DNA of 64,000 bases from an uncultured candidatus Brocadiaceae bacterium. Its GTDB lineage: Bacteria; Planctomycetota; UBA11346. The notes under the pieces were generated by a model that was given only the letters and a program-made list of their open reading frames with translations, had not been told where the DNA came from and did no database searches. The DNA lies in NCBI GenBank assembly GCA_964652775.1, contig CAZZAM010000001.1, positions 128,023-192,022 on the forward strand, read 5' to 3'. The position numbers were made by a program, and so were the translations under genes. Positions 3,185-40,211 of this stretch are shown one piece after another; the first letter of the stretch is position 1, and each line of letters starts with the position of its first letter.

Positions 3185-3285
3185 ATGTATCTGATCCTGA
3201 GTTGATCTGACTGTGAAAGAGGATGGATCCACTCGACTGCTAGTCTATCTCCGCTGGCCATTCATTTCGGACATAAACTTCAGCG

Positions 3286-5420: not shown

Positions 5421-5467
5421 CCAGCATGGCAGAGGCTGTCAATCGACGCAGTTCAATGATCACTCTT

Positions 5468-5580
5468 GGTGAGCCGCCAAGGCGACAAGTACGCCAAGAA
5501 TGCAATATTTCACCTGCTCATCGCTCATCGAAAGACGCTTAGGCTGACCCTTGGCGCACTTAGCGCCTTGGCGGCTCACC
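5468..5580. other. Perfect 17-bp inverted repeat (GGTGAGCCGCCAAGGCG / CGCCTTGGCGGCTCACC) with a 79-nt spacer
   Basis: The arms at 5468-5484 and 5564-5580 are exact reverse complements. They lie in the intergenic gap between two minus-strand genes (stop at 5588, start at 5420). Confidence 0.7.
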
Positions 5581-5587
5581 CAATGAC

Positions 5588-6622
5588 TCAGCGTTTCTTA
5601 CCGCTGCCAATTCGCGCTCCAGCGAGCGCTGTCCGCGTTACCGCTTGGGCCTGTTTGATGCGTTGGGCTAATCCAGCCAGCTCTTCTCTGTTCGTGGCAA
5701 ATGATTTACTCCACGATGTGTCGGCCAGCCAACCATCGCACAAACCGCCTGCTTCGTCGAGAAACCGTAGGTGTGCCTCAAGCTTGGGAACACCATCGGC
5801 TACCCGATCTGCCGTACCATTGGCAACCAACCAGGCGCGAATCTCGACCAACTGACGATGTCGTTCCAGCTCGATCTTCATATACGATATCCAATGCGTT
5901 GCGTCGTCGCCGAGCTGATTGGCCAGATCGCTATTGCGAAACACCGACGCGGTCAACGAACGTAACGCAGCCACACCTGCAGGATGAGGCAACAGACGCT
6001 GGAGGCTGGTGAGACAAGCGCTGAGTTCCGGCACCACCGCTAATGCAGGGTCACTCAGATGCGTGAGCACATGCAATCCAAGCAATCGACCGTCATTGCC
6101 GCCGTCGATTAAGTCAGCCACTCCGCGCAACACCTGACCGGCCTCTGCGGCGCGAGCGGGATCGGCTGGCGCCAAGCGCTGAATAAGCGATGCGGTTACT
6201 TCCAGTTCACCGGCAAGGCGAATCGTTTCCGGCCACGAGCGTGCCAACTCAACAACGGTCATCGCCAATCCATCGCACGATTGACGTGAGGCCACGATCA
6301 ACGCCGTTACCACCAGTTCCCGATCAGCTCCACGAACCAGCAACGGCTTGATCGCCCGAGCCAACCGCACGCGCAGTTCCGCGCCGACTATATCCACCGG
6401 CAACGCTCGTTCCTGCATATCGCTCAACGCTGCGGTGTCTCCTGATTCAATAGCAGCAACCACCTCGGCGAGCGAGCGATGTCGACTCGGAGCACTGGTG
6501 TGGCGCGATCCGATGCCCACCAACACCGCAATGACAACGACGCCACTCATGATGACGAGCGGCCAACGTGACCTCGTCACCGCAACGCGATTGACCCGTG
6601 ACGAACCGCGTGATGGAGCCAT
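5588..6622 (-). CDS. Hypothetical membrane-anchored protein
   Basis: 344-aa ORF. It has one N-terminal TM helix (WPLVIMSGVVVIAVLVGIG) followed by an Ala/Leu/Arg-rich, probably helical domain. I recognised no family motif. Confidence 0.55.
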   Translation of the reverse strand: MAPSRGSSRVNRVAVTRSRWPLVIMSGVVVIAVLVGIGSRHTSAPSRHRSLAEVVAAIESGDTAALSDMQERALPVDIVGAELRVRLARAIKPLLVRGADRELVVTALIVASRQSCDGLAMTVVELARSWPETIRLAGELEVTASLIQRLAPADPARAAEAGQVLRGVADLIDGGNDGRLLGLHVLTHLSDPALAVVPELSACLTSLQRLLPHPAGVAALRSLTASVFRNSDLANQLGDDATHWISYMKIELERHRQLVEIRAWLVANGTADRVADGVPKLEAHLRFLDEAGGLCDGWLADTSWSKSFATNREELAGLAQRIKQAQAVTRTALAGARIGSGKKR

Positions 6623-6855
6623 GTCGAGAGGCGTACGTTATGCGCACCACGGTAGCAATTGCCCGTAGCGGAGCCCGAGTTGCTCTGTATTGCGCGCCGT
6701 ATGTGATGCCTCTAGTTCTTGGAAAAATAACCATAAGGCCTTGTTATATAAGTTTTTATAAATTTTTATGCCGACCGTTCCCACTCTATCCACAGCACGC
6801 GCCGCGCGCGATCTCAACACTTGGCGAACGCATCCGTAACCGCACACTCCCGCCC

Positions 6856-7092
6856 ATGGCTTCATACCGGACAGCGCTTCCCTGGTCACACGCAACCCAC
6901 GGCCTGCTGGTGCAGGCGGTCGATGACCAGAACTTCCTCAAGACGGCCCTGCAAGCTGGGTTTTCGTCGCATCAGCTCACCAGCTGGGTGAACCGGGGCG
7001 ACGTCCCGGCCACCTTCCGCGCCGCACTGCGCGCCCTGGTCGATGACTGGTACCACAAGCGCTCATTCGCAACGAACGGTCGGGTCGCCTAA
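6856..7092 (+). CDS. Hypothetical small protein (78 aa)
   Basis: This is an internal ATG of ORF 6598..7092, located after the AT-rich region at 6715-6775. The product is MASYRTALPWSHATHGLLVQAVDDQNFLKTALQAGFSSHQLTSWVNRGD..., which has a possible small HTH. Support is weak. Confidence 0.3.
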   Translation: MASYRTALPWSHATHGLLVQAVDDQNFLKTALQAGFSSHQLTSWVNRGDVPATFRAALRALVDDWYHKRSFATNGRVA

Positions 7093-7094
7093 AC

Positions 7095-7361
7095 GTGGCG
7101 CGGTGGTCGATCCAGAAGCTGGTGACCGCAACGATCAGCTTCCGGATCAGCAGCGATACGCCGAAAGGTTATCGAACTGCCTGTCGAGCCTTGCGTAAAA
7201 AACTCATCTTCGCTGAATCTACTGTATTCGCCGACGACGCTCACGTTATCGCCCAGGTCGGGCGTGCCCGCGTCCGTGTTGGCAAACGCACGCCAACTAT
7301 CCGCCGCCTGAAGGGTGACCGCGATGGACCGTCACTAACGATTGAGGAACGGTCGTCCTAA
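7095..7361 (+). CDS. Hypothetical protein (88 aa, GTG start)
   Basis: An ORF-track entry lying 3 nt after the previous ORF. It looks coding but has no recognisable motif. Confidence 0.25.
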   Translation: MARWSIQKLVTATISFRISSDTPKGYRTACRALRKKLIFAESTVFADDAHVIAQVGRARVRVGKRTPTIRRLKGDRDGPSLTIEERSS

Positions 7362-7384
7362 TTGCGGCACCTCGGTTGAACTGA

Positions 7385-8401
7385 TCACGGGCCAGCTGGG
7401 GTGTAGATCGGGGCAACGCGTAGGACGACCGGTTGGTCATCGCCAGAGCTTGAAATACGTTCAAGAAGACGTCGCACTGCCAGCCTACCCATTGCCGCAC
7501 GCGGTAGAAGAACGCGGTCATACAGCGTAGTTAGCGTGTTTTCACGTTCGGAATCACAGAACATGGCAACGTGCATGTGCGCAAGACGTGGCCACGATGC
7601 CGGTAAATGCTGGCGCAAATAAGGAACGAATTCTGGGGCGTGCCAATCATTTTCAAAAATAATCGCATCCGGCGGTTGGCTGGCCGTTTCGATTAACTTG
7701 CCCGCACATTTGGCGCCTGCTTGGTAGCGACAATTGCCAGACACCACCAAGGTGGGATCCAATTCCAATCCTGCGCGTTCGAATGCGGCGCGAATACCGG
7801 CGAATTTTTCGCTGCTATTGAGATCCTCGATGAGGCAGCGGACCACCGCAATGCGGCGGCAGCCACGGGCCAATAATCCCTCGGCAAGCCAGTAAGCGCC
7901 CATGAAATTATCTGGAGCAACCACATCGCGATCAGTGCGCAGCACCTGATACTCGATCTGCACCTGTGGTAGACCCAAAGGAAGCAGCGCTTGGTAGACG
8001 TCCTCATGTGGTCCGACGATCAAGCCGTCGAGATCCATCTCCGTAACCCGTCGGACTAGATCGGCGACCATTGCCGCCCTGGTTTTGCCGCGTTCTATAT
8101 CAGCCAGAACGAGACCGACCTCATAGGTCGTACCCAGTAATGGCTCGCAGAGTCCGCTAAACGTCCCAACGTGAAACCAACCCAACCGATGTTGCAGCCC
8201 ACAATAGGCGAGGCGGCGGGTCGTGGTCGAGCTAGCCTGATCAACCCGCCGACGCAACTTACGCAACCCAACTTGGTTCCGCTGCGCCATGGCGAGGATC
8301 TTGGCGCGCAGTGCCGTGGAAACCCGGCCTTGGCCATGCAGAACCATGGAGACTACCGCCGGCGAAACCCCCAGTTTTGACGCTATCTCCTTTTGCTGCA
8401 T
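7385..8401 (-). CDS. LacI family transcriptional regulator
   Basis: The N-terminal HTH is 'MQQKEIASKLGVSPAVVSMVLHGQGRVSTALRAKILAMAQ'. It is followed by a periplasmic-binding-protein-like sugar-binding core, for a total of 338 aa. Confidence 0.9.
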   Translation of the reverse strand: MQQKEIASKLGVSPAVVSMVLHGQGRVSTALRAKILAMAQRNQVGLRKLRRRVDQASSTTTRRLAYCGLQHRLGWFHVGTFSGLCEPLLGTTYEVGLVLADIERGKTRAAMVADLVRRVTEMDLDGLIVGPHEDVYQALLPLGLPQVQIEYQVLRTDRDVVAPDNFMGAYWLAEGLLARGCRRIAVVRCLIEDLNSSEKFAGIRAAFERAGLELDPTLVVSGNCRYQAGAKCAGKLIETASQPPDAIIFENDWHAPEFVPYLRQHLPASWPRLAHMHVAMFCDSERENTLTTLYDRVLLPRAAMGRLAVRRLLERISSSGDDQPVVLRVAPIYTPAGP

Positions 8402-8544
8402 GTATGTGTGATCAGCTCCAGGTCAGGCTAAGTCAAGTGCTGCCACCTACCCGTCCTCCTGCTGCGGGGTACGCTCGCGCGCTGACGTCGTAAGCCGTCC
8501 GCCCTGCATGCAGCAGTCCGAAAATCCAGACTGCTCCGGAAAGT

Positions 8545-9510
8545 TCACGGCTGCCCTGCTGGTAACGGGTCACCAGATTCGAGCAGGCGCATCTCCGTGA
8601 CTAATTCAACTGCCTCGCCAGGTGCCAATGCCCGTTCCACCGAGGTCAATTCCAACTCAGCGCTGGCCGGCTCTGCATCCTCGCCCGGCTTGGGCGGCCG
8701 ACCGACCCACACCTTGGCCGGTCCGCCTGAACCACGACGGATCAGCGCCAGACCACTGCCGTCGGCACCACGCCAGGCCAATACCTGGGCTGAAAAGATG
8801 GCTTCACCCGAGCGGATTGGATCGAGCGTCAGTGTGAGTTGTTCGCCATCGGCCGTAGCCTGCGACCAGCGCTCGGCCAATCCAATGGCAGTCTTCGCAT
8901 CCGCGGTACGAGCCAGCACACGCACCGGATAAGGAACCTGGGCGATCTGCCAGACCGCCACCGGTGTCGTGATGAGCGATCCCTCGACCCGTTCGAAACG
9001 AGTACCGCAACGCAGTGCGCCGTTCTCAAGTGTGAAGTCGCGAATCATGCGAACGCCATGGCTGGGCAACATACCGACGAGACGCAGATGACCGAGCTTC
9101 GGCGTGCTGGTGGTCAGCGGCCCATCAGTGCCAATCGGCGGAGGCCAGGCGCGACCAGCTAACGTTTTCCAGCTCGATTGCGGCCACGGCCACACGCGAT
9201 CGCCACCAGGATTATACCACGCCGACAAACAGCGCTCAGCGCGGGTGTTCTCGAACAGACGATTTGCGCCACCAACTTTTCCGAAGCGGGCAACACGGGC
9301 AAAGGCAGGAACCACCACCGCCTCCACGACACCGTCCGTGAGCCGCACGGCTTGTGGGTAAGCAAACACCGTCTGCTCCAAGATCTCACCGGCTACCAGG
9401 CTAGACGCGAGCAGCAGGGTGACGAAGGCGAGTCCGCATTCGTGCAGCGGCACATTCAGTTGGGCTATACGCATGCTGCCATGCTGTATGCATCCCGCTC
9501 TCATGGCCAA
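8545..9510 (-). CDS. Hypothetical secreted protein
   Basis: 321-aa ORF with a signal-like segment (GLAFVTLLLASSLVAG). The rest is rich in beta-strand-type sequence ('YNPGGDRVWPWPQ'). It might be an aldose-epimerase-like/DUF-type sugar-binding fold, but this is unverified. Confidence 0.55.
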   Translation of the reverse strand: MAMRAGCIQHGSMRIAQLNVPLHECGLAFVTLLLASSLVAGEILEQTVFAYPQAVRLTDGVVEAVVVPAFARVARFGKVGGANRLFENTRAERCLSAWYNPGGDRVWPWPQSSWKTLAGRAWPPPIGTDGPLTTSTPKLGHLRLVGMLPSHGVRMIRDFTLENGALRCGTRFERVEGSLITTPVAVWQIAQVPYPVRVLARTADAKTAIGLAERWSQATADGEQLTLTLDPIRSGEAIFSAQVLAWRGADGSGLALIRRGSGGPAKVWVGRPPKPGEDAEPASAELELTSVERALAPGEAVELVTEMRLLESGDPLPAGQP

Positions 9511-9571
9511 GACTCTTTCGCGGCCGACTGGTTAATTAACCAACGCTCATCAGTCCGGCCTCCCCCATGAT

Positions 9572-9583
9572 GATGAATTCACT
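9572..9583. promoter_or_regulatory. Weaker copy of the TGAATTCA palindrome (GATGAATTCACT)
   Basis: It lies in the divergent intergenic region between 8545..9510(-) and 9757..11358(+), 62 nt from the ATG at 9510. Confidence 0.35.
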
Positions 9584-9756
9584 TCCGGCAGTCCGAGTTG
9601 CCCTACTCAGATCCGCGCACCGCTCTAGAGTCACGATGAAGCCACACCGATGATCACATCAATAATCTTCACTCCAGCCTCACCGTTCTCGTTGCCAGCA
9701 AAACGTTCTCTCCCATCACGAGAGGTTGGCGTCAGTCACTGGCGTCTCCACACCCC

Positions 9757-11358
9757 ATGAATCACCAGACTGCCACGCTTCTTTCAGCGACCCCCGAGCC
9801 GCAGGACGCCGCTGTCCTCGCCATGTGGGCCCCCGTCGTCACCCATACGCATCTCCTGCGCACCGGTCGCCTCCCGGCTGTTCAAGTTCCTGATCTACTT
9901 CAGTCCTGGACTCACAACCATCGCGTTCGTGCCATCGGCGTCGGCTCACCGTGGGAATCGGCGTCCTCTGCTGCCTACGCGCGCGGTGAAGCGATTGATC
10001 GCGATCGTTACTATGCAGGCCTCATCCCACCGGCCGAGGTGATGTGCGCCGACGCCGTGCATGGCTTGGTGGCGGGGCTTAACAAGCACAGTTCGGGTTG
10101 TTGTTACTATCTCGACAACGAGACGCCGAAATGCCGCTATGGACACATCTGGTATTTTGGCTGGAAATACCTGTGGCCAGCGTGGCACGATTACGACCAG
10201 GGACGCGAGGTGTGGTTCAATGAATCGGACACTGCTGCTGAAATCAATCCGCTCACCGGCGCTCCGCATCGCCGACGGGCGTATCTTGAGGTCGTGCACG
10301 AGCAGCGCCGTCATGGCGCCCTCGCCATCTGGGCACATCCGACCAGCTGGTGGAAAGACCATGGTCACTTCGTAACCAACATTGCCGCCGAATTGCCGCT
10401 CCAACTCCACGCCGATGGTATGGTCGATGGCATGGCGGTGATGGGGTACGACGCCTGCCATCGCTCGTACCAGGAACTCTGGTTCCATCTCCTTGATAGT
10501 GGCGCTGTGATACCTGGTTTTGCCGAAACCGACGCCTGCTTTGACAATGGCGAACGAAAAGCGGACGAACTGCTGTTAGCGACCCGCTTGCCACTGGGAA
10601 ACGACGCCAGTCTTGAACGCATTATCGCCACCGCCCGCCGTGGCCTCGCCTTCGCTACATCTGGCCCCCATCTCACCATCACCATTGATGGCACCCCAAT
10701 GGGATCATCGCTGCCTACTGCCAGCGGCCGACGACATCGCGTTCGAATCACAGCTTGGCCAGCACCTGGTGAAGCCTGTCTGTCGCGCATCGAACTGATC
10801 GGTCGTGGAGGACGCGTTTTGGCGCAAGCACAGCAGTTTCCCGGTGGCACCATGGAATTCGGTCTCACTGGCCAAGATCAAGCCAACTGGGTTCTGGCTC
10901 GGGCTTGGGGCGAACACGAAGATCCCGACCAGTCCAAGCAACAAAAGATCCGGCAATTCGCCATCACCAATCCTGTCTATTTGACGCACGGAGCGCCATT
11001 CAGCCAAGTTCGCAGCGCCTATCGGCTCACGGTGCGCCCTGGCAGCCAGTGGGCTGGTGGGCTCGTTCGCTTCACCGATCCGCATGGTCTTGAGCTTGAA
11101 CGCGCAGCTCTGCGCGGCGGAACGACCATCGCCTGCGAACTGCCGGGAAATGCCCGCGCCGTGCTGACCAAAGATGGACGCGAACATGCGTTCTTCATCG
11201 CCAGCGAAGACCGCACAGTACAGAAACTCACCCGTCATCTCTGGGCCGGAGAATTTCTTACCGCATGTCCGAACGCCGCTTTCGGCGAAGTCCCCACTGC
11301 CGCCTTCAACCTTGAACCCATGCGCCGAGCCCTCGCCAGCGCCAGCCACACGGTGTAA
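9757..11358 (+). CDS. Hypothetical protein, possibly a PHP/CehA-McbA-like metal-dependent hydrolase
   Basis: 533-aa ORF. His-rich motifs are spaced as in PHP-fold enzymes ('VVTHTHLL', 'YGHIWYF', 'AIWAHPTSWW', 'FAETDAC'). The assignment is tentative. Confidence 0.45.
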   Translation: MNHQTATLLSATPEPQDAAVLAMWAPVVTHTHLLRTGRLPAVQVPDLLQSWTHNHRVRAIGVGSPWESASSAAYARGEAIDRDRYYAGLIPPAEVMCADAVHGLVAGLNKHSSGCCYYLDNETPKCRYGHIWYFGWKYLWPAWHDYDQGREVWFNESDTAAEINPLTGAPHRRRAYLEVVHEQRRHGALAIWAHPTSWWKDHGHFVTNIAAELPLQLHADGMVDGMAVMGYDACHRSYQELWFHLLDSGAVIPGFAETDACFDNGERKADELLLATRLPLGNDASLERIIATARRGLAFATSGPHLTITIDGTPMGSSLPTASGRRHRVRITAWPAPGEACLSRIELIGRGGRVLAQAQQFPGGTMEFGLTGQDQANWVLARAWGEHEDPDQSKQQKIRQFAITNPVYLTHGAPFSQVRSAYRLTVRPGSQWAGGLVRFTDPHGLELERAALRGGTTIACELPGNARAVLTKDGREHAFFIASEDRTVQKLTRHLWAGEFLTACPNAAFGEVPTAAFNLEPMRRALASASHTV

Positions 11359-30058: not shown

Positions 30059-31156
30059 TTAACGATCACTGGTCGCTGACGGCACTGATCCAACCGCCAC
30101 ATCTGCAAATGTCGCAACCGCAGGATCGGTTACGTCTTCGTTGCTCACTACCACACCTGCGAGCAACGGCCCAGTGAAACTGGGAACCGTCATCGACTTT
30201 CCGACGCTGATCCAGGTCCGTCCATCATGGGACATTCCAGCGCTGATTTCCCTTTCACGGCGAACGAGGCGCAACCAGAGCGGATATGCTTCGTTCGCAA
30301 GCACCACTGATTCAATACGGCGGCCAGGGGTGTAACGACAACCCACTCTGACCCCATGATCCTTGTCTTGACCAAAAAATACCTTCGCGCTGTCTGTCTC
30401 CGTGGACAACCGGAGCATGATTCCAGCAAAGCCCTTTCCCTTGGCGCTCAGCGACATCAGCCGGGTGCTGACCATGCCGTCACCGATAAGCGTTGTTGCC
30501 GCCACCCGACAGATATCGCGATCATTCCAAATCACCTTTCCAACTCCACGCAGCGTCCAAATTCCAGCTGCTATATCTGGTCCTGAACCCATGTTGGGAA
30601 GACCAATATCGTAGCATGTCCAACCGGACAATCCCGTTATTGGTGCTGTAGTCGTCTTAGCGCGTGACGGCGGCGGCTGGATCGGACGAGTCGCCACCGG
30701 TACTGTAGGTACTGAAACCGGAGCTCGCTCGGTAGCGGATGGGCTTTGCAGCGGAGGCGCCTGAGTGACCGGGGTAACCGGGACTATCGTCGCAGCCGCG
30801 CTGGATGTCTCTGGTCGTCGCAACAACGACCACATGGTCACGAGAGACAGAGTGACAACGGCCACGACTGCCAAGAGCACCAATTGACGGGATCCGCCCG
30901 TCGATTGACGCACCTGCTGGCGGTCTTTCTGCATGCGATCCGAGGACGTTTCACGCTCCCATGAAGCCAACATCGAGGACACGGTTCCCAGCGGATGTCC
31001 AAAGATATCCCGTATCTGATCTTCCGACTGCGCTTCACCCTTGCGAAAAAGTTCGCGGACCCCAGCACGATCGAACGGACCACGGTCACCACGCAGGGTC
31101 AGAACGAAAAACGACTTGGCCGCTGGATCAGACATGGATGTCTGGGTAATATCCAA
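30059..31156 (-). CDS. Hypothetical single-pass membrane protein (GYF_2-like N-domain, Pro-rich linker, ConA/LamG-like C-domain; tentative)
   Basis: 365-aa ORF. It contains 'FFVLTLRGDRGPFDRAGVRELFRKGE', the TM segment LVLLAVVAVVTLSLVTMWSLL, a P/T/A-rich linker, and a C-terminal beta-rich segment of about 170 aa. Confidence 0.5.
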   Translation of the reverse strand: MDITQTSMSDPAAKSFFVLTLRGDRGPFDRAGVRELFRKGEAQSEDQIRDIFGHPLGTVSSMLASWERETSSDRMQKDRQQVRQSTGGSRQLVLLAVVAVVTLSLVTMWSLLRRPETSSAAATIVPVTPVTQAPPLQSPSATERAPVSVPTVPVATRPIQPPPSRAKTTTAPITGLSGWTCYDIGLPNMGSGPDIAAGIWTLRGVGKVIWNDRDICRVAATTLIGDGMVSTRLMSLSAKGKGFAGIMLRLSTETDSAKVFFGQDKDHGVRVGCRYTPGRRIESVVLANEAYPLWLRLVRREREISAGMSHDGRTWISVGKSMTVPSFTGPLLAGVVVSNEDVTDPAVATFADVAVGSVPSATSDR

Positions 31157-31286: not shown

Positions 31287-34200
31287 TTACGGCGATGTAA
31301 ACGCTTCGGTACGGCCCTGCGTCGTTGGACCCATCCTGGGATCGACAATCGGATTTCCGTGCCAACGGCTGAAAATAGAGTGAGCCCCGGTCATCGATCC
31401 ATCACCGGCCGGATCAACCGCGATAACCCGTTCAAGACTGGCCTCGGTCGCCAACTTGTCATTGCGACGATCCCAGAGTTCAGACCGGATGAACAGGCGC
31501 CACTTGTTGCACTGGCCGATATTCCAACGACCGGTTACCGAAAAATGTAGCTGCGGATCACCAACAGTGACAATGCCAGCGCCGGACACCGTTGTGGCAT
31601 CGACGATGCCGTCGCCATTGAGGTCAAGTGCCGGAGTGCCAAAGAGGCTCATACGAACGTCGTTCAAACGGTGCTCCAATTGACGCGACAGTGCCGCCCA
31701 GGTGGGCTTGTAATCAACATAGATCCCACTGGCGGCCGGATTTTCAATGGTTGGCCAGCCGAGGGACGTGTAGAGCTTGGTACCTGGATCGCGAACTCCC
31801 TTCACCGCGTAATTACGATATCCGTATTGACCAGGGTTACCGTCCTGGTTCAGAGCCATTCCACCACTCGACGTACAGCCTGCCGATCTGGTGGTACCAA
31901 TTTCAGTAGTGATGCCCGATAGCGCGTTCAACTGGTTCATCCGACCGAGTGGATACGGTGCCGAGTGGTCATTGGAGGGTGCCCCCAGATACACGGAATA
32001 ATCACTCGCGCTCATGGCTGTTGTACTCGCGTGGCTCGCTGCGTTGGTGTAGGCGATGGAAATACCCAAGTGGGCTAGGAACACCGTTTCCACGTCCTCA
32101 ATCTTGTCGTAACCCGTACTCAGTCCGGAAACTAATTTTCCATACTTGCGGTCAGACAAACAATCAACCAGGGTTTTCCAGAGCGCTGCAGTAATATCGT
32201 TCTGATATGACAACCGCTCATCCACCGTGTCGTTATTGTTACTCAGCAACGAATCACCCCCATTATCTGGCCGATTGCGGAAATAGTGGGTCTGGGAGTT
32301 ACTGTTCTGATAAAATTGACCAAAGACAAACACGTGGAACATATCTTCACCCGACCCTTGGCCAACGAATGGTGCCAATGGCGTGGTGTATTGCGTGGTC
32401 GCAGGAGCCGTAACGCTTGAATTCATCGCACGCTGGCACGAGGCAATGCCACCACCGTTAGCGTTTTGTAAATATGGAAAGCGAGCATAGCCAAACACCT
32501 CTGCAGGGGTAGCGACCACCTTAACGGCATGGCCAGGTGGGCTGGTGACGTACGCTACATAGGCAGTCGAATCGACACCGTTCAAGGTGAACACGCTGGT
32601 GCTGACCACCGTGACCGTATAGGGGCCACCATTCACCATAGTCATCCCCAGAACATCAGAAATATTTACCTGGTCCCCAGTAACCAATCCGTGAGATGCC
32701 GCTGTTACTGCGCACGGATTCGCCCTAGTAATTGCCGTAATATCCCGTCGCACTTCATCCACGGCGACCAATTCATCACGCACGGGATTCTTCCACACCA
32801 ATGGAGCATCGCCGGCGAAGGCATCGTTGCGGAAATAATACGTGCCCACCTCGGTACCATTCGCTGGCGGTCGCTTGTAGGTCGTGGTCAACACCACTGT
32901 ATTGCCTGCGCCGAGTGGAGGCAGCGCGCCGCCCTCAATGCCATCAGCGCCAGTTTTGGCCATACCGTCATCCCACACCGCAGCGAAAGCATCGCCCATC
33001 GTCGGACAGGCCTTGCGCGGGGGTATGGGTAACAAGTTACGCTGGTTCATCGAATAATTGAGGTGCGCCGAGCCGCTGCGCGACCGCGTGATGTAGTTAT
33101 CGATCTGACTATACCAATCCCCGGTCATGCCCGCGACCATGGCGACGCCCATTTCACGGGGCATCAATAGCATATTGACGTACCAGGGACAATCGATGTC
33201 CGCCAAACTGCCGTCGCCTTGGTTTCGTTTGGGCGACTTGGTTCGATCCAGATCAACTCCAAATGGGGTCGTACTGAAACAGCAGAGATCGACTGCGCGC
33301 GTTTGCGTACTGAGACTTTGCGTCAGGTCCGTAGATACCGAGCTCGACTCAAACCCCAATTTGGTGTGATACTGTGCCCAGCTCGCATTGGGTCCGGGTT
33401 GGAATTTCATCGGCGATGCCGGCGCTGACCACGGACTGCCGGGATCGGACGCCATGTCGTAGTTATAGAAATTACCTAACCAGCCCTGTCCCACAGCGAT
33501 ATTCATCATGCGGGTCAGCACGCCAGGAACGGCACTGCCCTTGTTGAGGCTCATGCTTACGCCATTGATCACAACCGTGGTTTTCACGTACGTTGGCGTG
33601 GCCCCCGACCAAGCATAAAATGCCGTGTTACCCTCTTGTCCGACGGGACCAGTGTACACCAAGCTACTGTTCTTTTTCACCCGGCCGGTTGATGAACCAT
33701 CGGTGACGCCCATGGCTCCGAACATGTTGCCGAGGGCCGTCGCATACTGCTGGGCCAGTGGGAAACTCGCACCGACCCAATCGGTATCGACTGGATCAAC
33801 CATGAAGGTCTGCTCGGCATTTGCCTGACTCAGACTGATCGTGGCGTTCGATCCTACAGCATACGACAAGGCCGCCGTTTTTCCCGAACCGAAGTAGGCC
33901 GCATCGCTCAGAAAAGCGACTGTTCCAGAGGCGATGGCAGCGGTTTCACCAGCACTGGGGGACGCAAACACTTCACCTGCGCCAGAGGGAACAATCTGAT
34001 TGCGTAGTCCATAGCGGAAGCGACCGCCGGTGGTCTTGGATAAAATATCCGGTCTGAAGTTGATGCTCATGTTCCCATCGAGGGGCAGCGCCATCACGGA
34101 AATCCGCGCCTCGTAGGCTGCTGATGCACGACTGGTCACCGGTAGGGGAATGAAGTTCTGATCATAATAAGCCATGGTGAACCATTTGGGCCAAGTCGCC

Positions 34201-35099
34201 GCGTTGGCGTTGTTGTACACCAGGCCGCGGAATCCATCGTAACTGTTCTGTGATTGCCAACTGGCGTTATCGCTGCCATTTTGGAACCAACCGGTGTTCA
34301 AACTGTTGCGCCACGGAGCGTACTGCATCGGCACCGCCAAAGTCCGCGCATCCATGCTGTCAACGATCGTCGGCCGCGTCGGATCACTCCAGGGAGTTGG
34401 GCTGCCCGCTCCTACGGCAATGAGGTTCCACCGCGTACTCGCCGGCGGGACCGTGGCGGTTGGACCGTTGGCAGCGTTACAGAGATAGTATGCCCCCGAG
34501 TAGAAAACATACTGGCCAGCGCTGTAACTAAGACTCGCCGACCACACCCTTGATGGGCCATACTGGTTGGCTGGCCATTGGCTGCTGGTCGTGCCCAGCG
34601 CATTGATGTCGGTGGTGCCGTCGGTCGCGCCAACCCGGCCTTCAAAGAAAAACTTCCAATTGAGACCCGTCCGCGCGGCAGGCACGACGGGGATCGGCCC
34701 ACCGTAATTATACATGACCTGACGCTCGGTTTGATTGGGAATATACACGTCCGGATAGCGCTGGGGTAGCTGCGCGGTGAACGCCGCTTGGTAGTCACTC
34801 ATCAGGATCTGCTGCGCGTACATCGCTCCAGCAATGGCTGTTTGCGCCGCAATTTGTCCAGCCGTTTGACGGGTTCCGCTCTCGCGCTGACTAGCCATCA
34901 AACCGACGAAGGTACCAGCCAACATCACGATCGTCCCCAGAATGAGCAGGACCATGAGTGCTACTGACCCGCGACGCGCAGTGTCGCCTGGGGGTGTGCA
35001 TGGCTGACGGAAACGCACGAACTGCAACGACACAGTCCGGACTTCTACATTCGCGATGGACAGACGCTGCTTGCTCTGAACTTGATAGCACATGATCAC
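31287..35099 (-). CDS. Giant GspK/PilX-like minor pseudopilin (1270 aa)
   Basis: The N-terminus 'ARRGSVALMVLLILGTIVMLAGTFVGL' is GspK-type, with no Glu at +5. The start (GTG 35099 or ATG 35093) abuts or overlaps the stop of the upstream pseudopilin gene. Confidence 0.7.
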   Translation of the reverse strand: MIMCYQVQSKQRLSIANVEVRTVSLQFVRFRQPCTPPGDTARRGSVALMVLLILGTIVMLAGTFVGLMASQRESGTRQTAGQIAAQTAIAGAMYAQQILMSDYQAAFTAQLPQRYPDVYIPNQTERQVMYNYGGPIPVVPAARTGLNWKFFFEGRVGATDGTTDINALGTTSSQWPANQYGPSRVWSASLSYSAGQYVFYSGAYYLCNAANGPTATVPPASTRWNLIAVGAGSPTPWSDPTRPTIVDSMDARTLAVPMQYAPWRNSLNTGWFQNGSDNASWQSQNSYDGFRGLVYNNANAATWPKWFTMAYYDQNFIPLPVTSRASAAYEARISVMALPLDGNMSINFRPDILSKTTGGRFRYGLRNQIVPSGAGEVFASPSAGETAAIASGTVAFLSDAAYFGSGKTAALSYAVGSNATISLSQANAEQTFMVDPVDTDWVGASFPLAQQYATALGNMFGAMGVTDGSSTGRVKKNSSLVYTGPVGQEGNTAFYAWSGATPTYVKTTVVINGVSMSLNKGSAVPGVLTRMMNIAVGQGWLGNFYNYDMASDPGSPWSAPASPMKFQPGPNASWAQYHTKLGFESSSVSTDLTQSLSTQTRAVDLCCFSTTPFGVDLDRTKSPKRNQGDGSLADIDCPWYVNMLLMPREMGVAMVAGMTGDWYSQIDNYITRSRSGSAHLNYSMNQRNLLPIPPRKACPTMGDAFAAVWDDGMAKTGADGIEGGALPPLGAGNTVVLTTTYKRPPANGTEVGTYYFRNDAFAGDAPLVWKNPVRDELVAVDEVRRDITAITRANPCAVTAASHGLVTGDQVNISDVLGMTMVNGGPYTVTVVSTSVFTLNGVDSTAYVAYVTSPPGHAVKVVATPAEVFGYARFPYLQNANGGGIASCQRAMNSSVTAPATTQYTTPLAPFVGQGSGEDMFHVFVFGQFYQNSNSQTHYFRNRPDNGGDSLLSNNNDTVDERLSYQNDITAALWKTLVDCLSDRKYGKLVSGLSTGYDKIEDVETVFLAHLGISIAYTNAASHASTTAMSASDYSVYLGAPSNDHSAPYPLGRMNQLNALSGITTEIGTTRSAGCTSSGGMALNQDGNPGQYGYRNYAVKGVRDPGTKLYTSLGWPTIENPAASGIYVDYKPTWAALSRQLEHRLNDVRMSLFGTPALDLNGDGIVDATTVSGAGIVTVGDPQLHFSVTGRWNIGQCNKWRLFIRSELWDRRNDKLATEASLERVIAVDPAGDGSMTGAHSIFSRWHGNPIVDPRMGPTTQGRTEAFTSP

Positions 35100-36109
35100 G
35101 GCGCCTTGGTGGTAAAGGTAAATGCCTGACGCAGACCGGTGGCCCGGTCCACCAGGGTCAAGGCAATCTGCAACTGCCGGGGACGCAGCAGATTCGACGC
35201 GGTGTCCGTCGTGGTATAACCCTCACCATCGATGCTCGTATTGTATCCGCCCCCAGCATCGGCCACGGTCACTCCCGCACGGGTGAGCATGCTGATCGAA
35301 CAGTCTTCGACGTTATCGACGAGAACCCGCGTTTGATCTGGAATGGGAACCGCATCCCAAATGCTGGTCAATGCGGTGTTAGACAACGATAAGTTGAGTT
35401 GATCTGCTGCGATCATCGAGTTAGGAACCTGGTTGCTGATGGGATTGGTGGTCCGCTCAGCGGTCATGCCCAAATAATTACGGGTTGTTCCATCGGCATC
35501 GACGCCGGTCAGAAACAGCATATCGTAGATCTTCACTTGTCTCGCCACGGCGGGGGTGGCGGACAGTGGATCGTAGAAGCTCATTATGCCATTGAGGAAT
35601 TCGCTATAGGTACGGACCGCACTGGGGCGCGCTCCGATAACCGGCCGGAACATCATACCAATGTCATTGATGGTGAACATGCGCAGATTCGGATACCAGA
35701 CATAGCCATACGCCGGGGGTGACGCCGCCCGGGTCAGGCTCCGCGAAGCGGCCTTCCACTCCCAGCGCACCCAACCGAAATCCACGTCCTTAGGAAAATT
35801 GTAAGAGGCCTGTTCCCAAAATTCGCGCGCTGAACGCATACCAGTGAACTGGACTATCGACTTAACGCCACCGCTGTAGGTGGTGGTCCCATTGCAGGCG
35901 ACATGCTGCAAGAGACAGGCCATGTCGCGTTCCCATTGCTCGGCGATGTCCCCGGCTTGGCGATGCAAACGAACGGTGGCTTCAGCGCGTTGGATCAGGC
36001 GCTTGCTGTGTTGATACGCCGCCATGGCCAATCCCATGACGGCCATACCCAAGGCCATGGCCACCATCATTTCGATCAGCGTGAAACCACGACGTGACAT
36101 CACCGTCAT
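35096..36109 (-). CDS. GspJ-like pseudopilin (about 337 aa)
   Basis: ORF 35096..36310, but residues 1-67 are a read-through of the repeat element. The start is probably Met68 or Met71 (36109/36100), giving MTVMSRRG|FTLIEMMVAMALGMAVMGLAMAAY, a prepilin cleavage/methylation motif. Confidence 0.75.
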   Translation of the reverse strand: MTVMSRRGFTLIEMMVAMALGMAVMGLAMAAYQHSKRLIQRAEATVRLHRQAGDIAEQWERDMACLLQHVACNGTTTYSGGVKSIVQFTGMRSAREFWEQASYNFPKDVDFGWVRWEWKAASRSLTRAASPPAYGYVWYPNLRMFTINDIGMMFRPVIGARPSAVRTYSEFLNGIMSFYDPLSATPAVARQVKIYDMLFLTGVDADGTTRNYLGMTAERTTNPISNQVPNSMIAADQLNLSLSNTALTSIWDAVPIPDQTRVLVDNVEDCSISMLTRAGVTVADAGGGYNTSIDGEGYTTTDTASNLLRPRQLQIALTLVDRATGLRQAFTFTTKAP

Positions 36110-36139
36110 GGATGCGGACGTTGCGACACGCCTGCTAGA

Positions 36140-36296
36140 TCCGGCGATGAGATCACATGGAGGAACGGAGGAACGGAGCAGGCATGGGCTTGGAGAATCA
36201 ACGGCATTCACCCAACATGTGATTGCTTTCTTCGCCGCGCATACCGTGCGACTCCGGTCCTCCGGTTCTCCATGTCGATCAGATGCTGCGTTTGGG
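36140..36296 (+). repeat. Hairpin repeat element, copy 3 (inside the pseudopilin operon)
   Basis: It aligns with the copies at 15227 and 29909. It occupies the 197-nt gap between the I-like and J-like pseudopilin genes, in the orientation opposite to transcription. Confidence 0.85.
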
Positions 36297-36306
36297 ATCA
36301 TGGAAC

Positions 36307-36753
36307 TCATCGGCTCACCACGCTGACGAGGCCAGCCAGTTTCTGCCCGCTTTCACCCCAGAACACATTCACTTGGACCAGATCGACACTGTGGCTCATC
36401 GCCTGGAGGATAGTCCGCTCGACATAGTAACCGTTGAGGAAACCGGTAACCGGCGAATCCGCCATGGTCTTCGCTGCATCAACGAGCGCGGGGTCAACCA
36501 GGGCCGTACGCGCGGTTGATTCGGCGGTGGCCATGCCAACGGCAATGTGCGACTCGCGCGTTCCGATGGTCGTCAGGGCCAGGACCGACAGCAAACCCAT
36601 GGACAGCAAGAGGAGCGCGATGATGACATCGATCAGGGTGAAGGCCCGACGAATAGGCGAACCACGACGAGCAATAGTCCGGACTTCCGGACTTCCGGAC
36701 TTCCGAACGACTTCGCCTCGGTTCACAGCACGATGCGTGTGATTGGTGCTCAT
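36307..36753 (-). CDS. GspI-like pseudopilin (148 aa)
   Basis: 'RRA|FTLIDVIIALLLLSMGLLSVLAL' prepilin-type N-terminus. The ATG at 36753 overlaps the upstream stop (ATGA). The size is typical of GspI. Confidence 0.75.
   Translation of the reverse strand: MSTNHTHRAVNRGEVVRKSGSPEVRTIARRGSPIRRAFTLIDVIIALLLLSMGLLSVLALTTIGTRESHIAVGMATAESTARTALVDPALVDAAKTMADSPVTGFLNGYYVERTILQAMSHSVDLVQVNVFWGESGQKLAGLVSVVSR
36678..36707. repeat. Tandem octamer array TCCGGAct x3 plus a degenerate unit
   Basis: TCCGGA occurs at 36678, 36686 and 36694, and TCCGAA at 36702. The array lies inside the 5' coding leader of the I-like pseudopilin. Confidence 0.9.
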
Positions 36754-38330
36754 GGCTTGGGCTTGATCCAGGGGTACGGGTCGTGTTGCTGCAGCATTTC
36801 GGGCTCAAGGGCACCAGTAACGCGGATCTTGTTCGCATCCCCATCAGTAACGGCGCAATACACCCAGCCATTGCCCCAGATCCGATCGGCGGTGGGAACA
36901 TTGACCTCGATGGCGTCAAGCCAGGCCTGAATACTCGCAAATGGTCGAATGCTGCGGACTGCCCCGGTTGGTTCGCTGACCACGATCCGGCGCATCGGCA
37001 GTAGCGACTTCAATGCGATGCTTGGGCTGGTAAAACTCGTGAGGTCGTCTGGTGCATCCTTGGCGACGGTGACCGATGGACCGCCAATCGCATCGCCCGC
37101 GAAGTAGATGATGCCATCGTCACGGCCGTGAAAGACATAGTTACTCGTCACAGCACCGTATTGCGGCTGGGCAATTTTCTTGGGCGCTGCGAGACCCGTG
37201 GCATCCATCCACGCCCAGGCCGAGTACAACGCCGCACGATTATAAAACGTCAGGGCCCGAGCCTGACCGTCACCAAGGAAGACGATGGCGAAATCCATCC
37301 AGTACCCATTGAGGACCGGACGCGGCGTACCGATTTGCGTCGCGTCACAACAGGGCCGCATCTCCTCTTGCGCACTGTTCCGCGCCGGAGTTTGCGCCGC
37401 GTTGCTGGGGGTGTACCAGCAGTCGCACAAGGCCGCATTGGTGCTGTTGGTCACCGGGATCGCTGTTTGCGCGTCATTCCATCTAAAAACACCTGGGCGA
37501 CCAGGGTTACCAGTTTGGAAAGCGTCGTGATTGGCGCCGCGATAGGTGCATTCGTAATCCAACCCCGAACCATAGATGGTGGTGTCGTAGCCAGCAAAGG
37601 CGCGCATCGTGTAGGCTGAACCCGAACCGGTGAGGTAGCCAAACCAGGGGCGGGGATAGGTGGTGCTGAGCGCCGCGATGCCGGTGCGGGTTGGCGTATC
37701 CTGGGACCACGCCGTAGCAGCAATGCCATACTGGGCGCGATCAACCGGAATCTGCGCCACCGCCGGGGTGTGGAGATTGTCCTCGACATCGCCCAGCGCC
37801 AAGAACCGCGTCCCCCTTGGCAAATAGAATGGTTCGCCGATTTGCGCGCGTTGGACGGTTGCAGCAAAGCGCTGAGCTGATCCGCGTGAACCCATCTTGG
37901 TGGACTCGGGAGCGCCGCTCATGCGTGGCAACAGGTCGTAGCCTTTCTCTGGTCCGATGATGGCGCACCAGTGCCGGCCAGGAAAGACTTTTGGATCCGA
38001 CTCATCCCAGTTGCGGAGGATGGCTCCCGAACCTTTGTTCTCGAGGTGAAACACCACGCAGTGGGGCTTGCCCGACGTGATGGCCAGATTGCGCGCCTTG
38101 AGCAGCATGCGTTCCACCCCATTCGCGGCCTGCTCAACCTGGATCTCAGCCTGGCCTTTGCTCAGCATCCCGCTCGACATCGTGATCCCTGCGAGGATTG
38201 AGATAATCCCGATGACGACCAGCAGTTCGATCAGCGTAAACGCACGGGTAATACGGCTCATCCTGAACGCAGCAGTCCGGAAGTCCGGAAGTCCGGAAGT
38301 CCGGACTGCGTCAATGAGGTTAATGATCAT
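36750..38330 (-). CDS. GspH/FimT-like pseudopilin (526 aa)
   Basis: 'ITRA|FTLIELLVVIGIISILAGI' is followed by 'AANGVERMLLKARNLAITSGKPHCVVF' (GspH-like). The start is either the ATG at 38330 (3 nt after the upstream stop) or the internal ATG at 38261. Confidence 0.75.
   Translation of the reverse strand: MIINLIDAVRTSGLPDFRTAAFRMSRITRAFTLIELLVVIGIISILAGITMSSGMLSKGQAEIQVEQAANGVERMLLKARNLAITSGKPHCVVFHLENKGSGAILRNWDESDPKVFPGRHWCAIIGPEKGYDLLPRMSGAPESTKMGSRGSAQRFAATVQRAQIGEPFYLPRGTRFLALGDVEDNLHTPAVAQIPVDRAQYGIAATAWSQDTPTRTGIAALSTTYPRPWFGYLTGSGSAYTMRAFAGYDTTIYGSGLDYECTYRGANHDAFQTGNPGRPGVFRWNDAQTAIPVTNSTNAALCDCWYTPSNAAQTPARNSAQEEMRPCCDATQIGTPRPVLNGYWMDFAIVFLGDGQARALTFYNRAALYSAWAWMDATGLAAPKKIAQPQYGAVTSNYVFHGRDDGIIYFAGDAIGGPSVTVAKDAPDDLTSFTSPSIALKSLLPMRRIVVSEPTGAVRSIRPFASIQAWLDAIEVNVPTADRIWGNGWVYCAVTDGDANKIRVTGALEPEMLQQHDPYPWIKPKP
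38276..38305. repeat. Tandem octamer array TCCGGAag x4
   Basis: TCCGGA occurs at 38276, 38284, 38292 and 38300. On the coding strand it is followed by CTGCTGCGTTCAGGATG, where the ATG is the internal start at 38261. Confidence 0.9.
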
Positions 38331-38333
38331 GAC

Positions 38334-40211
38334 TCAGTGTTTCCGCGTGACTTGAGGGCGTAGATTATCTGTGTTGGCCGCGTTCGTACGTACGGCATGA
38401 AACAAGCTGTCGCGGCCCGCGCTTAACAGTTCGAAATCCCGTTCTTCACCCATGGGCGCACACAAACGGATATCGTAAGCCGCGACGTTGGTATCATACG
38501 CGCCGTTACGCACGCGATCATAGTAGAGTTCACTGCCCCCCTGTTCACCATCGCCATTGTCATCCTTCCACGGTTCGACCAGTTTACTTCCGTCTTTGGA
38601 CACACAGTAGTACACCACGCCGCCGCGCTTGTGGGTTGGTACCGACTGAACCGCAACCCGACTGGGAATGGCGGTGCCGAATATCGGATAGGGATCGCCG
38701 CATTCCTCCATGTCGATGCCGTGCAATGCCCACACATGCGGACCACCGATCATGGGCGAAGGAGGTGACGTTGCCGAGGGGCAGTGGTAGTCGATGAGGG
38801 ATATATCCATGGCATCGGCCCGCACAGGCACTCCACGATCATTCACCCGATCAGTGACATAGCAGTAGCCGGGCGTGTAGAGCGGCGGAGCGTGATAACC
38901 GGTAATCATACCCGAGGTGTCGCCGGCCAGCGGAATGAGACTCGTCAAATCCGAACTCGGATCTGGGTGATAAAGTAACATGCAGCCCTTGCCATACATG
39001 CTCTGTCCGCGCTGATTGGGACTAGTGCCTGAGATAAACGCATTGCCGTTGAGCTGGGCAAGACGGCAATTGATCGTCTTCTTCGCCGGCAGACCTTCGT
39101 TGATATAGACCAGCGGCTGTCCGTAAGCATCCAGGATATCCACCTTCGTGTCGCCATCGAGATCCGACTTCAGGTAATTGTCCAACTGACCGCCAAGGTA
39201 GTCATCATGCCAGGGATCGCTCAAGGTCGCAACGTTGATCGTCTTGGAAGCACTAGTCTCACCCAACGAAACGCCTGATGCATCCGTACCGCTGTCGTAG
39301 GTGTAATTGCCGGCGGCAACACCATGACGCAAACCACGCAGATACGCATCTGCCGCATCGCGCGGCCGAGCATAACTGACATAAATGGGGAAGAGCTGGT
39401 TGATCCAACTCGCAAAGTAACCGAGGCCACCAGCAACGTGATAATCGCCGCTATATGGCGTCGGCTGCCGGGACATCAACATCGGGGCCACGCGGAAGTG
39501 ATCGAAAATCCTTTTCACTTCGCGTTCGCCCAGTGACACCGGTCCGGTGGCATCATAGTGCGCCCAGTCCTTTGCGGGCGCCGCGGTCACCGTCTGGGTC
39601 ATATTGGCCGCGTTAAACAGCGGTGGCAAATCCAGCCCAGCACACACCACATTCCCGTAGCTGCCGATGTGGTAGAAGCGATCGAGTTCGATGGTGCGCA
39701 TGGAATTCGCATTATTGAGCGCCAAGGTTTTGTCAGCTGCGACCATCGGGGTTCCCAAACTATAAAACAGGCCATTGCCAATCGCCCAGGTCGTCGGCGT
39801 ACTTGCCGGCGCCCACACCGTGTCGTTGTCCGGCGTCGGCAGTCCGGTTGCTGCGGCAACCTTGACCAGCCCATCATCAAAGCCGCCGCTTTCCGTCTGT
39901 ACTGGTGGCGCGGAATAAAAGCCCCTGGGATAGAAACCCATTTCGCTCCGGAACGTACGCAGGGCGGTATCAACCTTGTCCAACACCAATTGAGTCTGGG
40001 ATCGCTTGGCCGACTGGCGCACGCTCATCAGCCCGCCGTAGGTCATGGACGACAAAATCGCGATGATGCTGATGACCACCAACATCTCGATCAGCGAAAA
40101 CCCCCTCCGCCCAGACCCAGGACATGACGGCACACTTCCGAACCGGGAAACAAGCTCACATGAAGAAACGTATGGCATGGTACTGTGAATTGTGTCCATC
40201 CAGGCCATCAC
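38334..40211 (-). CDS. GspG-like pseudopilin with large insertions (625 aa)
   Basis: 'GRRG|FSLIEMLVVISIIAILSSM' is followed by 'AKRSQTQLVLDKVDTALRTFRSEMGFYP'. The later 'DGDTKVDILDAYGQPLVY' and C-terminal 'DFELLSAGRDS' mirror the GspG landmarks (DPWG.PY.Y / F.L.S.G.DG). Confidence 0.75.
   Translation of the reverse strand: MMAWMDTIHSTMPYVSSCELVSRFGSVPSCPGSGRRGFSLIEMLVVISIIAILSSMTYGGLMSVRQSAKRSQTQLVLDKVDTALRTFRSEMGFYPRGFYSAPPVQTESGGFDDGLVKVAAATGLPTPDNDTVWAPASTPTTWAIGNGLFYSLGTPMVAADKTLALNNANSMRTIELDRFYHIGSYGNVVCAGLDLPPLFNAANMTQTVTAAPAKDWAHYDATGPVSLGEREVKRIFDHFRVAPMLMSRQPTPYSGDYHVAGGLGYFASWINQLFPIYVSYARPRDAADAYLRGLRHGVAAGNYTYDSGTDASGVSLGETSASKTINVATLSDPWHDDYLGGQLDNYLKSDLDGDTKVDILDAYGQPLVYINEGLPAKKTINCRLAQLNGNAFISGTSPNQRGQSMYGKGCMLLYHPDPSSDLTSLIPLAGDTSGMITGYHAPPLYTPGYCYVTDRVNDRGVPVRADAMDISLIDYHCPSATSPPSPMIGGPHVWALHGIDMEECGDPYPIFGTAIPSRVAVQSVPTHKRGGVVYYCVSKDGSKLVEPWKDDNGDGEQGGSELYYDRVRNGAYDTNVAAYDIRLCAPMGEERDFELLSAGRDSLFHAVRTNAANTDNLRPQVTRKH

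Follow-up and report, generated by a model that had tools for sequence, protein, structure and literature searches.

A degenerate CBM5/12-like insert in a giant pseudopilin-type protein from an uncultured Brocadiaceae bacterium

Here, we examine a short segment that resembles carbohydrate-binding modules (CBMs) of the CBM5/12 type and lies inside a giant pseudopilin-type protein, encoded on a 64,000-nucleotide stretch of DNA (hereafter the window) from an uncultured candidatus Brocadiaceae bacterium of the Planctomycetota (assembly GCA_964652775.1, contig CAZZAM010000001.1, positions 128,023 to 192,022 of the forward strand; positions below are those of the window). The host gene, a K-position minor pseudopilin-type gene on the minus strand (31287..35099), encodes 1270 aa when read from a GTG overlapping the stop codon of the gene before it. 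Immediately upstream lie four co-directional pseudopilin genes (35096..40211, minus strand), of which one is G-like (625 aa), one H-like (526 aa), one I/PilV-like (148 aa; 36307-36753), and one J-like (404 aa; 35096-36310), as judged by N_methyl and partial NCBIfam GspG/H/I/J matches. Minus-strand translation of 34428-34547 yields the 40-mer VWSASLSYSAGQYVFYSGAYYLCNAANGPTATVPPASTRW, which corresponds to residues 185-224 of open reading frame (ORF) 31287..35099, exactly as given in a sequence-only reading of this DNA, which had proposed a CBM5/12 signature within a GspK-like tip protein next to a set of glycan-active enzymes.

The CBM5/12-like segment and its loop

The module (V185-W224; 34428..34547, minus strand) is supported by translation, Pfam, phmmer against the PDB, a custom hidden Markov model (HMM), and hhalign. 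The motif proposed in the sequence-only reading needs one correction, in that the spacing between W186 and Y192 is x5 and not x4, whereas the rest of the pattern is present, giving W-x5-Y-x2-G-x2-V-x-Y-x-G-x2-Y. Among 47,372 six-frame ORFs of the genome (5.36 million residues), this motif occurs once, at 34428-34547, with ~8e-5 occurrences expected genome-wide from residue frequencies; a relaxed aromatic/aliphatic version is again unique to residues 185-224 (0.07 expected). The residues of core type are W186, Y192, G195, V198, Y200, G202, Y205, C207, and W224. Compared with the tandem modules of Vibrio deacetylases (PDB 4ny2, 3wx7, 8yh4, 9jt0) and the chitin-binding domain (ChBD) of Bacillus circulans chitinase A1 (1ed7), the segment shares the length class of ~40-45 residues, the pattern W-x5-Y-x2-G-x2-V-x-Y-x-G-x2-Y-x-C, and a similarly spaced Trp towards the C-terminal end. 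It differs in that its second half is not aligned, and in that it sits within a pseudopilin-type protein, whereas the known modules are appended to enzymes.

The Pfam scan suggested in the sequence-only reading returns a CBM_5_12 (PF02839) match, although a sub-threshold one, at residues 186-211, ungapped and covering model positions 2-27 of 44. Against a gathering cut-off of 26.2 bits, the whole protein scores 16.9 bits (E 0.0067) and the 40-mer 22.6 bits, and a scan of the model across the whole genome gives the module site 16.3 bits (E 0.05). The same scan of 14 control genomes gave matches in nine at E<=1 and in two at E<=0.01, both of the latter above the cut-off, and by this yardstick the E-values of the genome scan look calibrated. 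The absence of an HMM match, combined with a fold unlike that of a CBM, had been named as the outcome that would speak against the signature; a CBM_5_12 HMM match exists.

When a 64-aa segment was compared by phmmer with all PDB sequences, eight chains were found at E<0.1, every one of them CBM5/12-bearing, and the following matches lay at E>6. Among these, 1ed7, the chitin-binding domain of B. circulans ChiA1, matches at E 0.07, and the others are Vibrio chitin oligosaccharide deacetylases, which reach E 5e-5 to 9e-3 when their two tandem modules are summed. A custom HMM, built from 19 CBM_5_12 modules from genomes of the same bacterial family with the window segment excluded, was run against the 47,372 six-frame ORFs and matched ORF 31287..35099 at E 0.0017 (residues 185-222, 38 of 50 positions), the sole match below E 10 outside the training protein. 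In hhalign, the module aligned to a profile of 18 local CBM5/12 modules with 94.3% probability and a score of 35.2, whereas 200 composition-preserving shuffles gave a mean of 9.0, a standard deviation of 1.9, and a maximum of 14.8. A search with the module as a single sequence in 48 related genomes retrieved the CBM_5_12 sites already found by Pfam, at 33-39% identity, and no closer donor beyond these known sites. Two tail-fibre families, phrog_5073 and phrog_4398, match the segment weakly (E 0.007 and 0.018); taken by themselves, these two matches fall short of significance, and there is no phage context. The resemblance of the module to CBM5/12 exceeds chance in these sequence comparisons, and we consider a real relationship between the two likely. 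The signature put forward earlier is thus backed by Pfam, PDB, and local-profile evidence, while its sub-threshold score, partial model coverage, and missing binding aromatics qualify it.

The module occupies an expanded loop of 83 aa (residues 156-238; 34386..34634, minus strand), which is delimited by alignments and loop lengths and lies between the anchors FEGR (152-155) and DPTRP (239-243). The same loop measures 35-62 aa in the five orthologues measured and holds a short hairpin, MARxSYxANRY, alone. By sequence comparison, the module is not a feature of the family; the variable loop that follows the N-terminal helix has been enlarged, specifically in this lineage, by ~45 residues, as many as make up a single CBM5/12 module. 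A different reading, in which the segment is a family-conserved hairpin (it is aligned with the conserved YDGRGRWIEPGYY in a 21-sequence alignment), was ruled out by the loop probabilities given below and by the ~45 extra residues.

The loop comparison also bears on whether homology is involved at all, as the aromatic/glycine-rich beta-hairpin of the family might have been elaborated in place and have converged on a CBM5/12-like pattern. In keeping with this, the MARxSYxANRY hairpin of the orthologues lies at the same place and is aligned by MAFFT to QYVFYSGAYY, the stretch is aligned to the conserved element of the wider family, the Pfam match is sub-threshold with a partly aligned model, and the fold models are of low confidence. 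However, the loops of five orthologues and five paralogues reach an hhalign probability below 1% against the CBM profile, compared with 94% for the window segment, whose score lies ~14 standard deviations above the composition-preserving shuffles. Moreover, Pfam, PDB, and local-profile searches independently point to one family, and the 38-column match takes in W186 and the C207 region beyond the shared hairpin. Convergence therefore appears quite unlikely to us.

Host protein, operon, and neighbourhood

The N-terminal part of the host protein contains an RRGS motif, a hydrophobic helix, and a long alpha-1 (residues ~42-107; 34779..34976, minus strand; read from the sequence). By inspection, it reads RRG followed by SVALMVLLILGTIVMLAGTF (which begins SVALMV) and, like GspK-type subunits, lacks a Glu at +5. 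The RRGS motif followed by the hydrophobic helix of ~21 residues is found in 18 paralogues and nine orthologues. A database gene call for this protein, P0003, starts at M49 and drops the RRGS motif (34956-35099, minus strand). Since RRGS is kept ahead of the helix in 9/9 orthologues and in the paralogues, the true start lies ahead of M49, and the GTG that overlaps the stop of the preceding gene is one possible site.

An exhaustive HMMER search combined with a C-terminal word search retrieved the nine orthologues (1055-1183 aa, 42-48% identity), and related genomes encode many paralogues, which measure 830-1400 aa, can be aligned over their full length, and number up to 8-10 in one genome. Copy number differs among these incomplete metagenome-assembled genomes (MAGs), with 8-10 family matches in the same-genus genomes G005 and G006 and a single one in the genome of the window, where ORF 31287..35099 is the sole match of an HMM for the family-conserved C-terminal domain. 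This domain (31290..31703, minus strand), recognised by a signature common to the paralogues, reads LNDVRMSLFG..DLNGDG..FSxTGR..R.ELWD..RWH in the host and LNDxRMSFFG..DFNGDG..FSxTG..RGEVxD..QRWH family-wide. Within it, a D-L-N-G-D-G-x-V-D loop (31590-31640, minus strand; residues ~1154-1170) recalls dockerin/EF-hand calcium sites, and several of its residues are invariant over 21 family members. No Pfam or NCBIfam family model matches any of 20 paralogues, and the family profile finds no match, and no pilin or GspK, among PDB sequences. A first word-based search returned the host protein itself and one match to its FCCH module and no more, a profile search intended to deepen the alignment added nothing, and a related-locus search with the single host protein gave no close relative.

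The FCCH module is, on sequence evidence, a second lineage-specific insert of the host protein: an E1_FCCH-like beta-barrel module at residues 800-851 (32547..32702, minus strand), scoring 32.1 bits against PF16190, above the cut-off of 29.5. Its position is empty in 8/9 orthologues and is taken by a different insert in the orthologue P0154. The insert also matches the phage major tail protein family phrog_584 (E 3e-11). The exhaustive search returned 2,387 proteins at E<=0.001, and most of the top matches listed hit the ~70-aa FCCH-like module, in proteins of ~100 to 4,400 aa.

Neighbouring frames in the pseudopilin operon of the window abut or overlap, and the giant gene comes last, in the K position. 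At four orthologue loci, four or five pseudopilin genes are likewise followed directly by a gene for a protein of ~1,080-1,126 aa. The host thus resembles the GspK/XcpX/PilX subunits, which are tip minor pseudopilins in type II secretion and type IVa pili, in following G-, H-, I-, and J-like genes, in having an R-G-x-hydrophobic helix without Glu5, and in being the largest subunit of its set, with extra material inserted in the head. It differs from them in being four times larger than GspK and in having no significant match to a GspK model or structure: NCBIfam T2SS_GspK (NF037980) aligns residues 43-106 to profile positions 2-65 at 9.6 bits (E 0.6, cut-off 130), Pfam T2SSK gives no match in the host protein at E<=1, and N_methyl, present in all four operon partners, does not match it. 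The GspK-like label of the sequence-only reading is consequently borne out by gene order and the GspK-type N-terminus and is not borne out by NCBIfam, Pfam, or PDB profile searches; GspK-like is here a positional and N-terminal analogy.

These same data bear on the alternative that the host is not a filament-tip subunit but a giant protein, anchored in the membrane or secreted, whose gene simply happens to follow pseudopilin genes, in which case the module would never reach the fibre tip. The missing Pfam T2SSK and N_methyl matches, the NCBIfam GspK E-value of 0.6, the lack of a pilin structure among PDB matches of the family profile, and the low confidence of the full-length structural model are all compatible with it. 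On the other side, the G-H-I-J-giant order with overlapping or abutting frames is kept at four orthologue loci of 42-48% identity, and the RRGS motif with its ~21-residue hydrophobic helix is family-wide, as in GspK-type subunits. We hold this alternative to be improbable.

The assembly machinery is not beside the window operon; secretins (seven) and ATPases of the GspE/PilB type (at least four) and the PilT-like type (several) are encoded elsewhere in the genome. For one of the PilT-like ATPases, eight MAGs labelled Planctomycetota are among the closest relatives, at 79-87% identity. The glycan-enzyme neighbourhood described earlier is real, with two GH9, a GH88, a GH42-like enzyme, a CE-type esterase, and an S15 hydrolase encoded beside the operon. 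The flanks of the orthologue loci contain LacI-type regulators, a rhamnosidase, a SASA esterase, beta-helix proteins, a sulfatase, and an alginate lyase/heparinase, so that the association of the pseudopilin operon with carbohydrate-active genes is recurrent, with enzymes that differ by locus.

Directly downstream of the giant gene of the window lies a 365-aa ORF (30059-31156, minus strand), which weakly matches ConA-like/GH43_C2 (E 0.018) and GltJ-like (E 3e-4) models, and at the P0156 and P0154 loci a SASA esterase gene follows the giant gene in its place. A 15-kb contig carrying P0006 (Logan ERR3697022) contains two consecutive pseudopilin operons, each ending in a gene for a protein of ~1,060-1,077 aa, after which a LacI-type regulator follows.

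Binding face, fold, and likely role of the insert

CBM5/12 modules have two core aromatics in common, represented by Y265 and W299 in CjCBM5, and substrate binding by CBM5 involves an exposed Y-W or W-W pair (Y282-W283 in CjCBM5) together with a third aromatic residue, Y296 (PMC8449059). In the window module, Y192 is aligned to the core Tyr within the HMM match, and because this match is ungapped, Y192 can be taken as the core Tyr, which places Ala209-Ala210 at +17/+18, where NAAN (208-211) occupies the site of the CBM5 aromatic pair. The sequence between C207 and W224 contains no aromatic residue. The canonical CBM5 binding face is therefore absent from the module, and since the exposed canonical aromatics are missing, classical binding to crystalline chitin or cellulose is improbable. 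W224 lies at +32 from Y192 (+34 expected) and outside every aligned region, and it is a plausible core Trp.

A different surface may have arisen on the central hairpin. From strand alternation, we infer that Y197, F199, Y204, and L206 point outward, and the positions matching them are mostly polar in local CBM5/12 modules; this hydrophobic face could be either a new binding platform or a buried interface. A single-sequence AlphaFold model of residues 147-243 exceeds a pLDDT of 50 only at 190-220, with short strands at 197-200, 203-208, and 212-215 (pLDDT 50-61). Two of these, YVFY (197-200) and AYYLCN (203-208), fall at the site expected for the central hairpin of CBM5/12, in a model of too low confidence to count. 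In Foldseek, 8yh4, a CBM-bearing Vibrio deacetylase, is one of two top chains tied at E 2.0, which is not significant.

Taken together, we give roughly even chances to the interpretation that the segment is a degenerate CBM5/12-derived insert, probably serving as an exposed ligand-binding decoration of the tip subunit and not as a canonical chitin-binding module. According to this proposal, a CBM5/12 module would have been gained as an expansion of ~45 residues in the loop just past the N-terminal helix of a giant minor pseudopilin, the subunit presumed to correspond by position to GspK, at the tip, in a Planctomycetota operon of five pseudopilin genes. Residues 185-224 would form a small beta fold on the exposed surface of the tip subunit's head, and the module may act as an adhesive, ligand-binding decoration of a type IV filament serving the adjacent glycan-degradation locus. 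The candidate glycan surface, if any, would be an unusual cluster of aromatic residues, Y197, F199, and Y204, on the outward side of the central hairpin. Binding of a glycan by the module is plausible on these grounds. Chitin is disfavoured as the ligand; in the 84%-complete genome, four GH20 enzymes were found and no GH18.

Several observations weigh against this interpretation. The PF02839 gathering threshold is not reached, and only the first 26 of 44 model positions are covered; the module is absent in 9/9 orthologues, hence there is no conservation evidence for function; and the three CBM5 surface aromatics have no aromatic counterpart, with the two alanines standing at +17/+18 from Y192. 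No GH18 chitinase was found in the genome, which is 84% complete, a level at which absence is unproven. The structural models add little confidence, with a mean pLDDT of 42 for residues 147-243 and of 28.9 for the full-length protein (a 1200-aa run with a 10-sequence alignment), and the small model gives no Foldseek match below E 2. Finally, the tip location is inferred from gene order only, with no GspK model or structure matching.

A further alternative is that the CBM5/12-derived segment is no longer carbohydrate-binding and now serves as a structural or protein-contact element, touching the subunit body, partner tip pseudopilins, or a secreted cargo enzyme. The canonical binding aromatics have been lost, judging from the sequence and the reference module (PMC8449059); the hairpin face, polar in other CBM5/12 modules, carries hydrophobic residues in this one (Y197, F199, Y204, L206), like a buried interface; and most local CBM5/12 variants in giant proteins of the lineage also have no CBM12-type exposed Trp. 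Nevertheless, lineage-specific inserts in variable, probably exposed loops are more typical of ligand-binding decorations, and intact CBM_5_12 modules occur together with PA14, both carbohydrate-binding types, in a sister system of this genome. We regard a purely structural role as possible, though not likely.

Related pilus-type proteins and known binding filaments

The sister system is a second pilus-type locus of the genome, outside the window (G000:C7:1565-13053), which contains, in order, two ORFs with prepilin-like N-termini (SAFTLLEV and VGMSMVEV), a gene for a 2562-aa protein (3084-10850), and a PilT-like ATPase. This protein has a K-like N-terminus (ARRGNALVV plus a hydrophobic helix), matches CBM_5_12 at 45.3 bits with two copies above threshold and a third detected by the custom HMM, and matches PA14 at 60.6 bits. 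Like the window host, it combines a K-like N-terminus with preceding prepilin-like ORFs, and its CBM5/12 modules lie ~250 residues from the start; unlike the host, its CBM_5_12 matches are above threshold and it carries PA14. It belongs to a different family, as it is not matched by the C-terminal HMM built for the family of the window host. From its sequence features, the 2562-aa protein would be a much cleaner case of a glycan-binding tip protein than the gene in the window.

The presentation of binding modules at filament tips by minor pilins is an established principle. In Streptococcus sanguinis, PilC carries a lectin module, binds glycans, and has been modelled at the pilus tip, while PilB carries a vWA module (PMC9934059, PMC8179133). 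The window host would follow the same principle, as a minor pilin-type protein carrying a putative binding module for presentation at the tip. In modular type IV pilins, a linker joins the module to the C-terminal end of a small canonical pilin, whereas the window host, a K-position subunit of more than 1200 aa without a recognisable N_methyl, has it as a short insertion within its head. Set against the definition of a modular pilin, the host has two extra modules, the CBM5/12-like one (sub-threshold) and E1_FCCH (above threshold), and no N_methyl match. IPR003610 is presumably CBM5/12. One IPR012902-IPR003610 architecture is listed in Dataset S1 of a survey of >1,200 modular pilins, which also includes ConA-like and PA14 architectures (PMC8179133). 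What is new here is the host family, the position of the module, inserted within the protein, and the degeneracy of its binding face.

Pili-like fibres of planctomycetes have been found to bind gold-labelled dextran, in a study that did not identify the proteins responsible (PMC5394234). Giant tip-position pseudopilins with carbohydrate-binding-type inserts, encoded in glycan-degradation loci, would be candidates for such binding between fibre and polysaccharide. The window module would be a weak example (degenerate and lineage-specific) and the 2562-aa protein a much stronger one, and both would extend the modular-pilin idea to an uncharacterised family without a Pfam or NCBIfam model. In a broader and more speculative scenario, each glycan locus of Planctomycetota encodes its own type IV filament, with a giant K-position tip whose swappable ligand-binding inserts (CBM5/12-like, FCCH-like, PA14) would make the filament a "fishing line" for a particular substrate, catching polysaccharide for the enzymes encoded alongside and forming the molecular basis of the dextran-binding fibres (PMC5394234). 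Were this true, the insert of the window would be one specificity determinant, with a non-canonical aromatic binding face; at present, we view the scenario as unlikely.

CBM_5_12 matches also occur in the middle of three other members of the giant family (G006:C12, G006:C1, and G022:C18) and in an 856-aa pseudopilin with N_methyl (G043:C2). In these four proteins, the matches score 22.5-28.1 bits at segment level and 19-22 bits in whole-ORF hmmscan. Two of the paralogue matches pass the cut-off at segment level (27.3 and 28.1 bits) but reach only 21.3 and 21.0 bits in whole-ORF hmmscan, and both are treated as near-threshold matches and not as certified family members. Most local CBM5/12 variants in the giant proteins of the lineage lack the exposed Trp of the CBM12 type. 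The 856-aa pseudopilin (L059) and a 927-aa protein of pseudopilin type (L061; G047:C363) both contain the CBM5/12-like stretch HPYGIGTLVTRNGTNYTCLVAH... in mid-protein and have the tail motif VRLRAV.VARFNFYDP in common, with the N_methyl signal of L059 at 35-58. The two represent another pseudopilin family with CBM5/12-like inserts.

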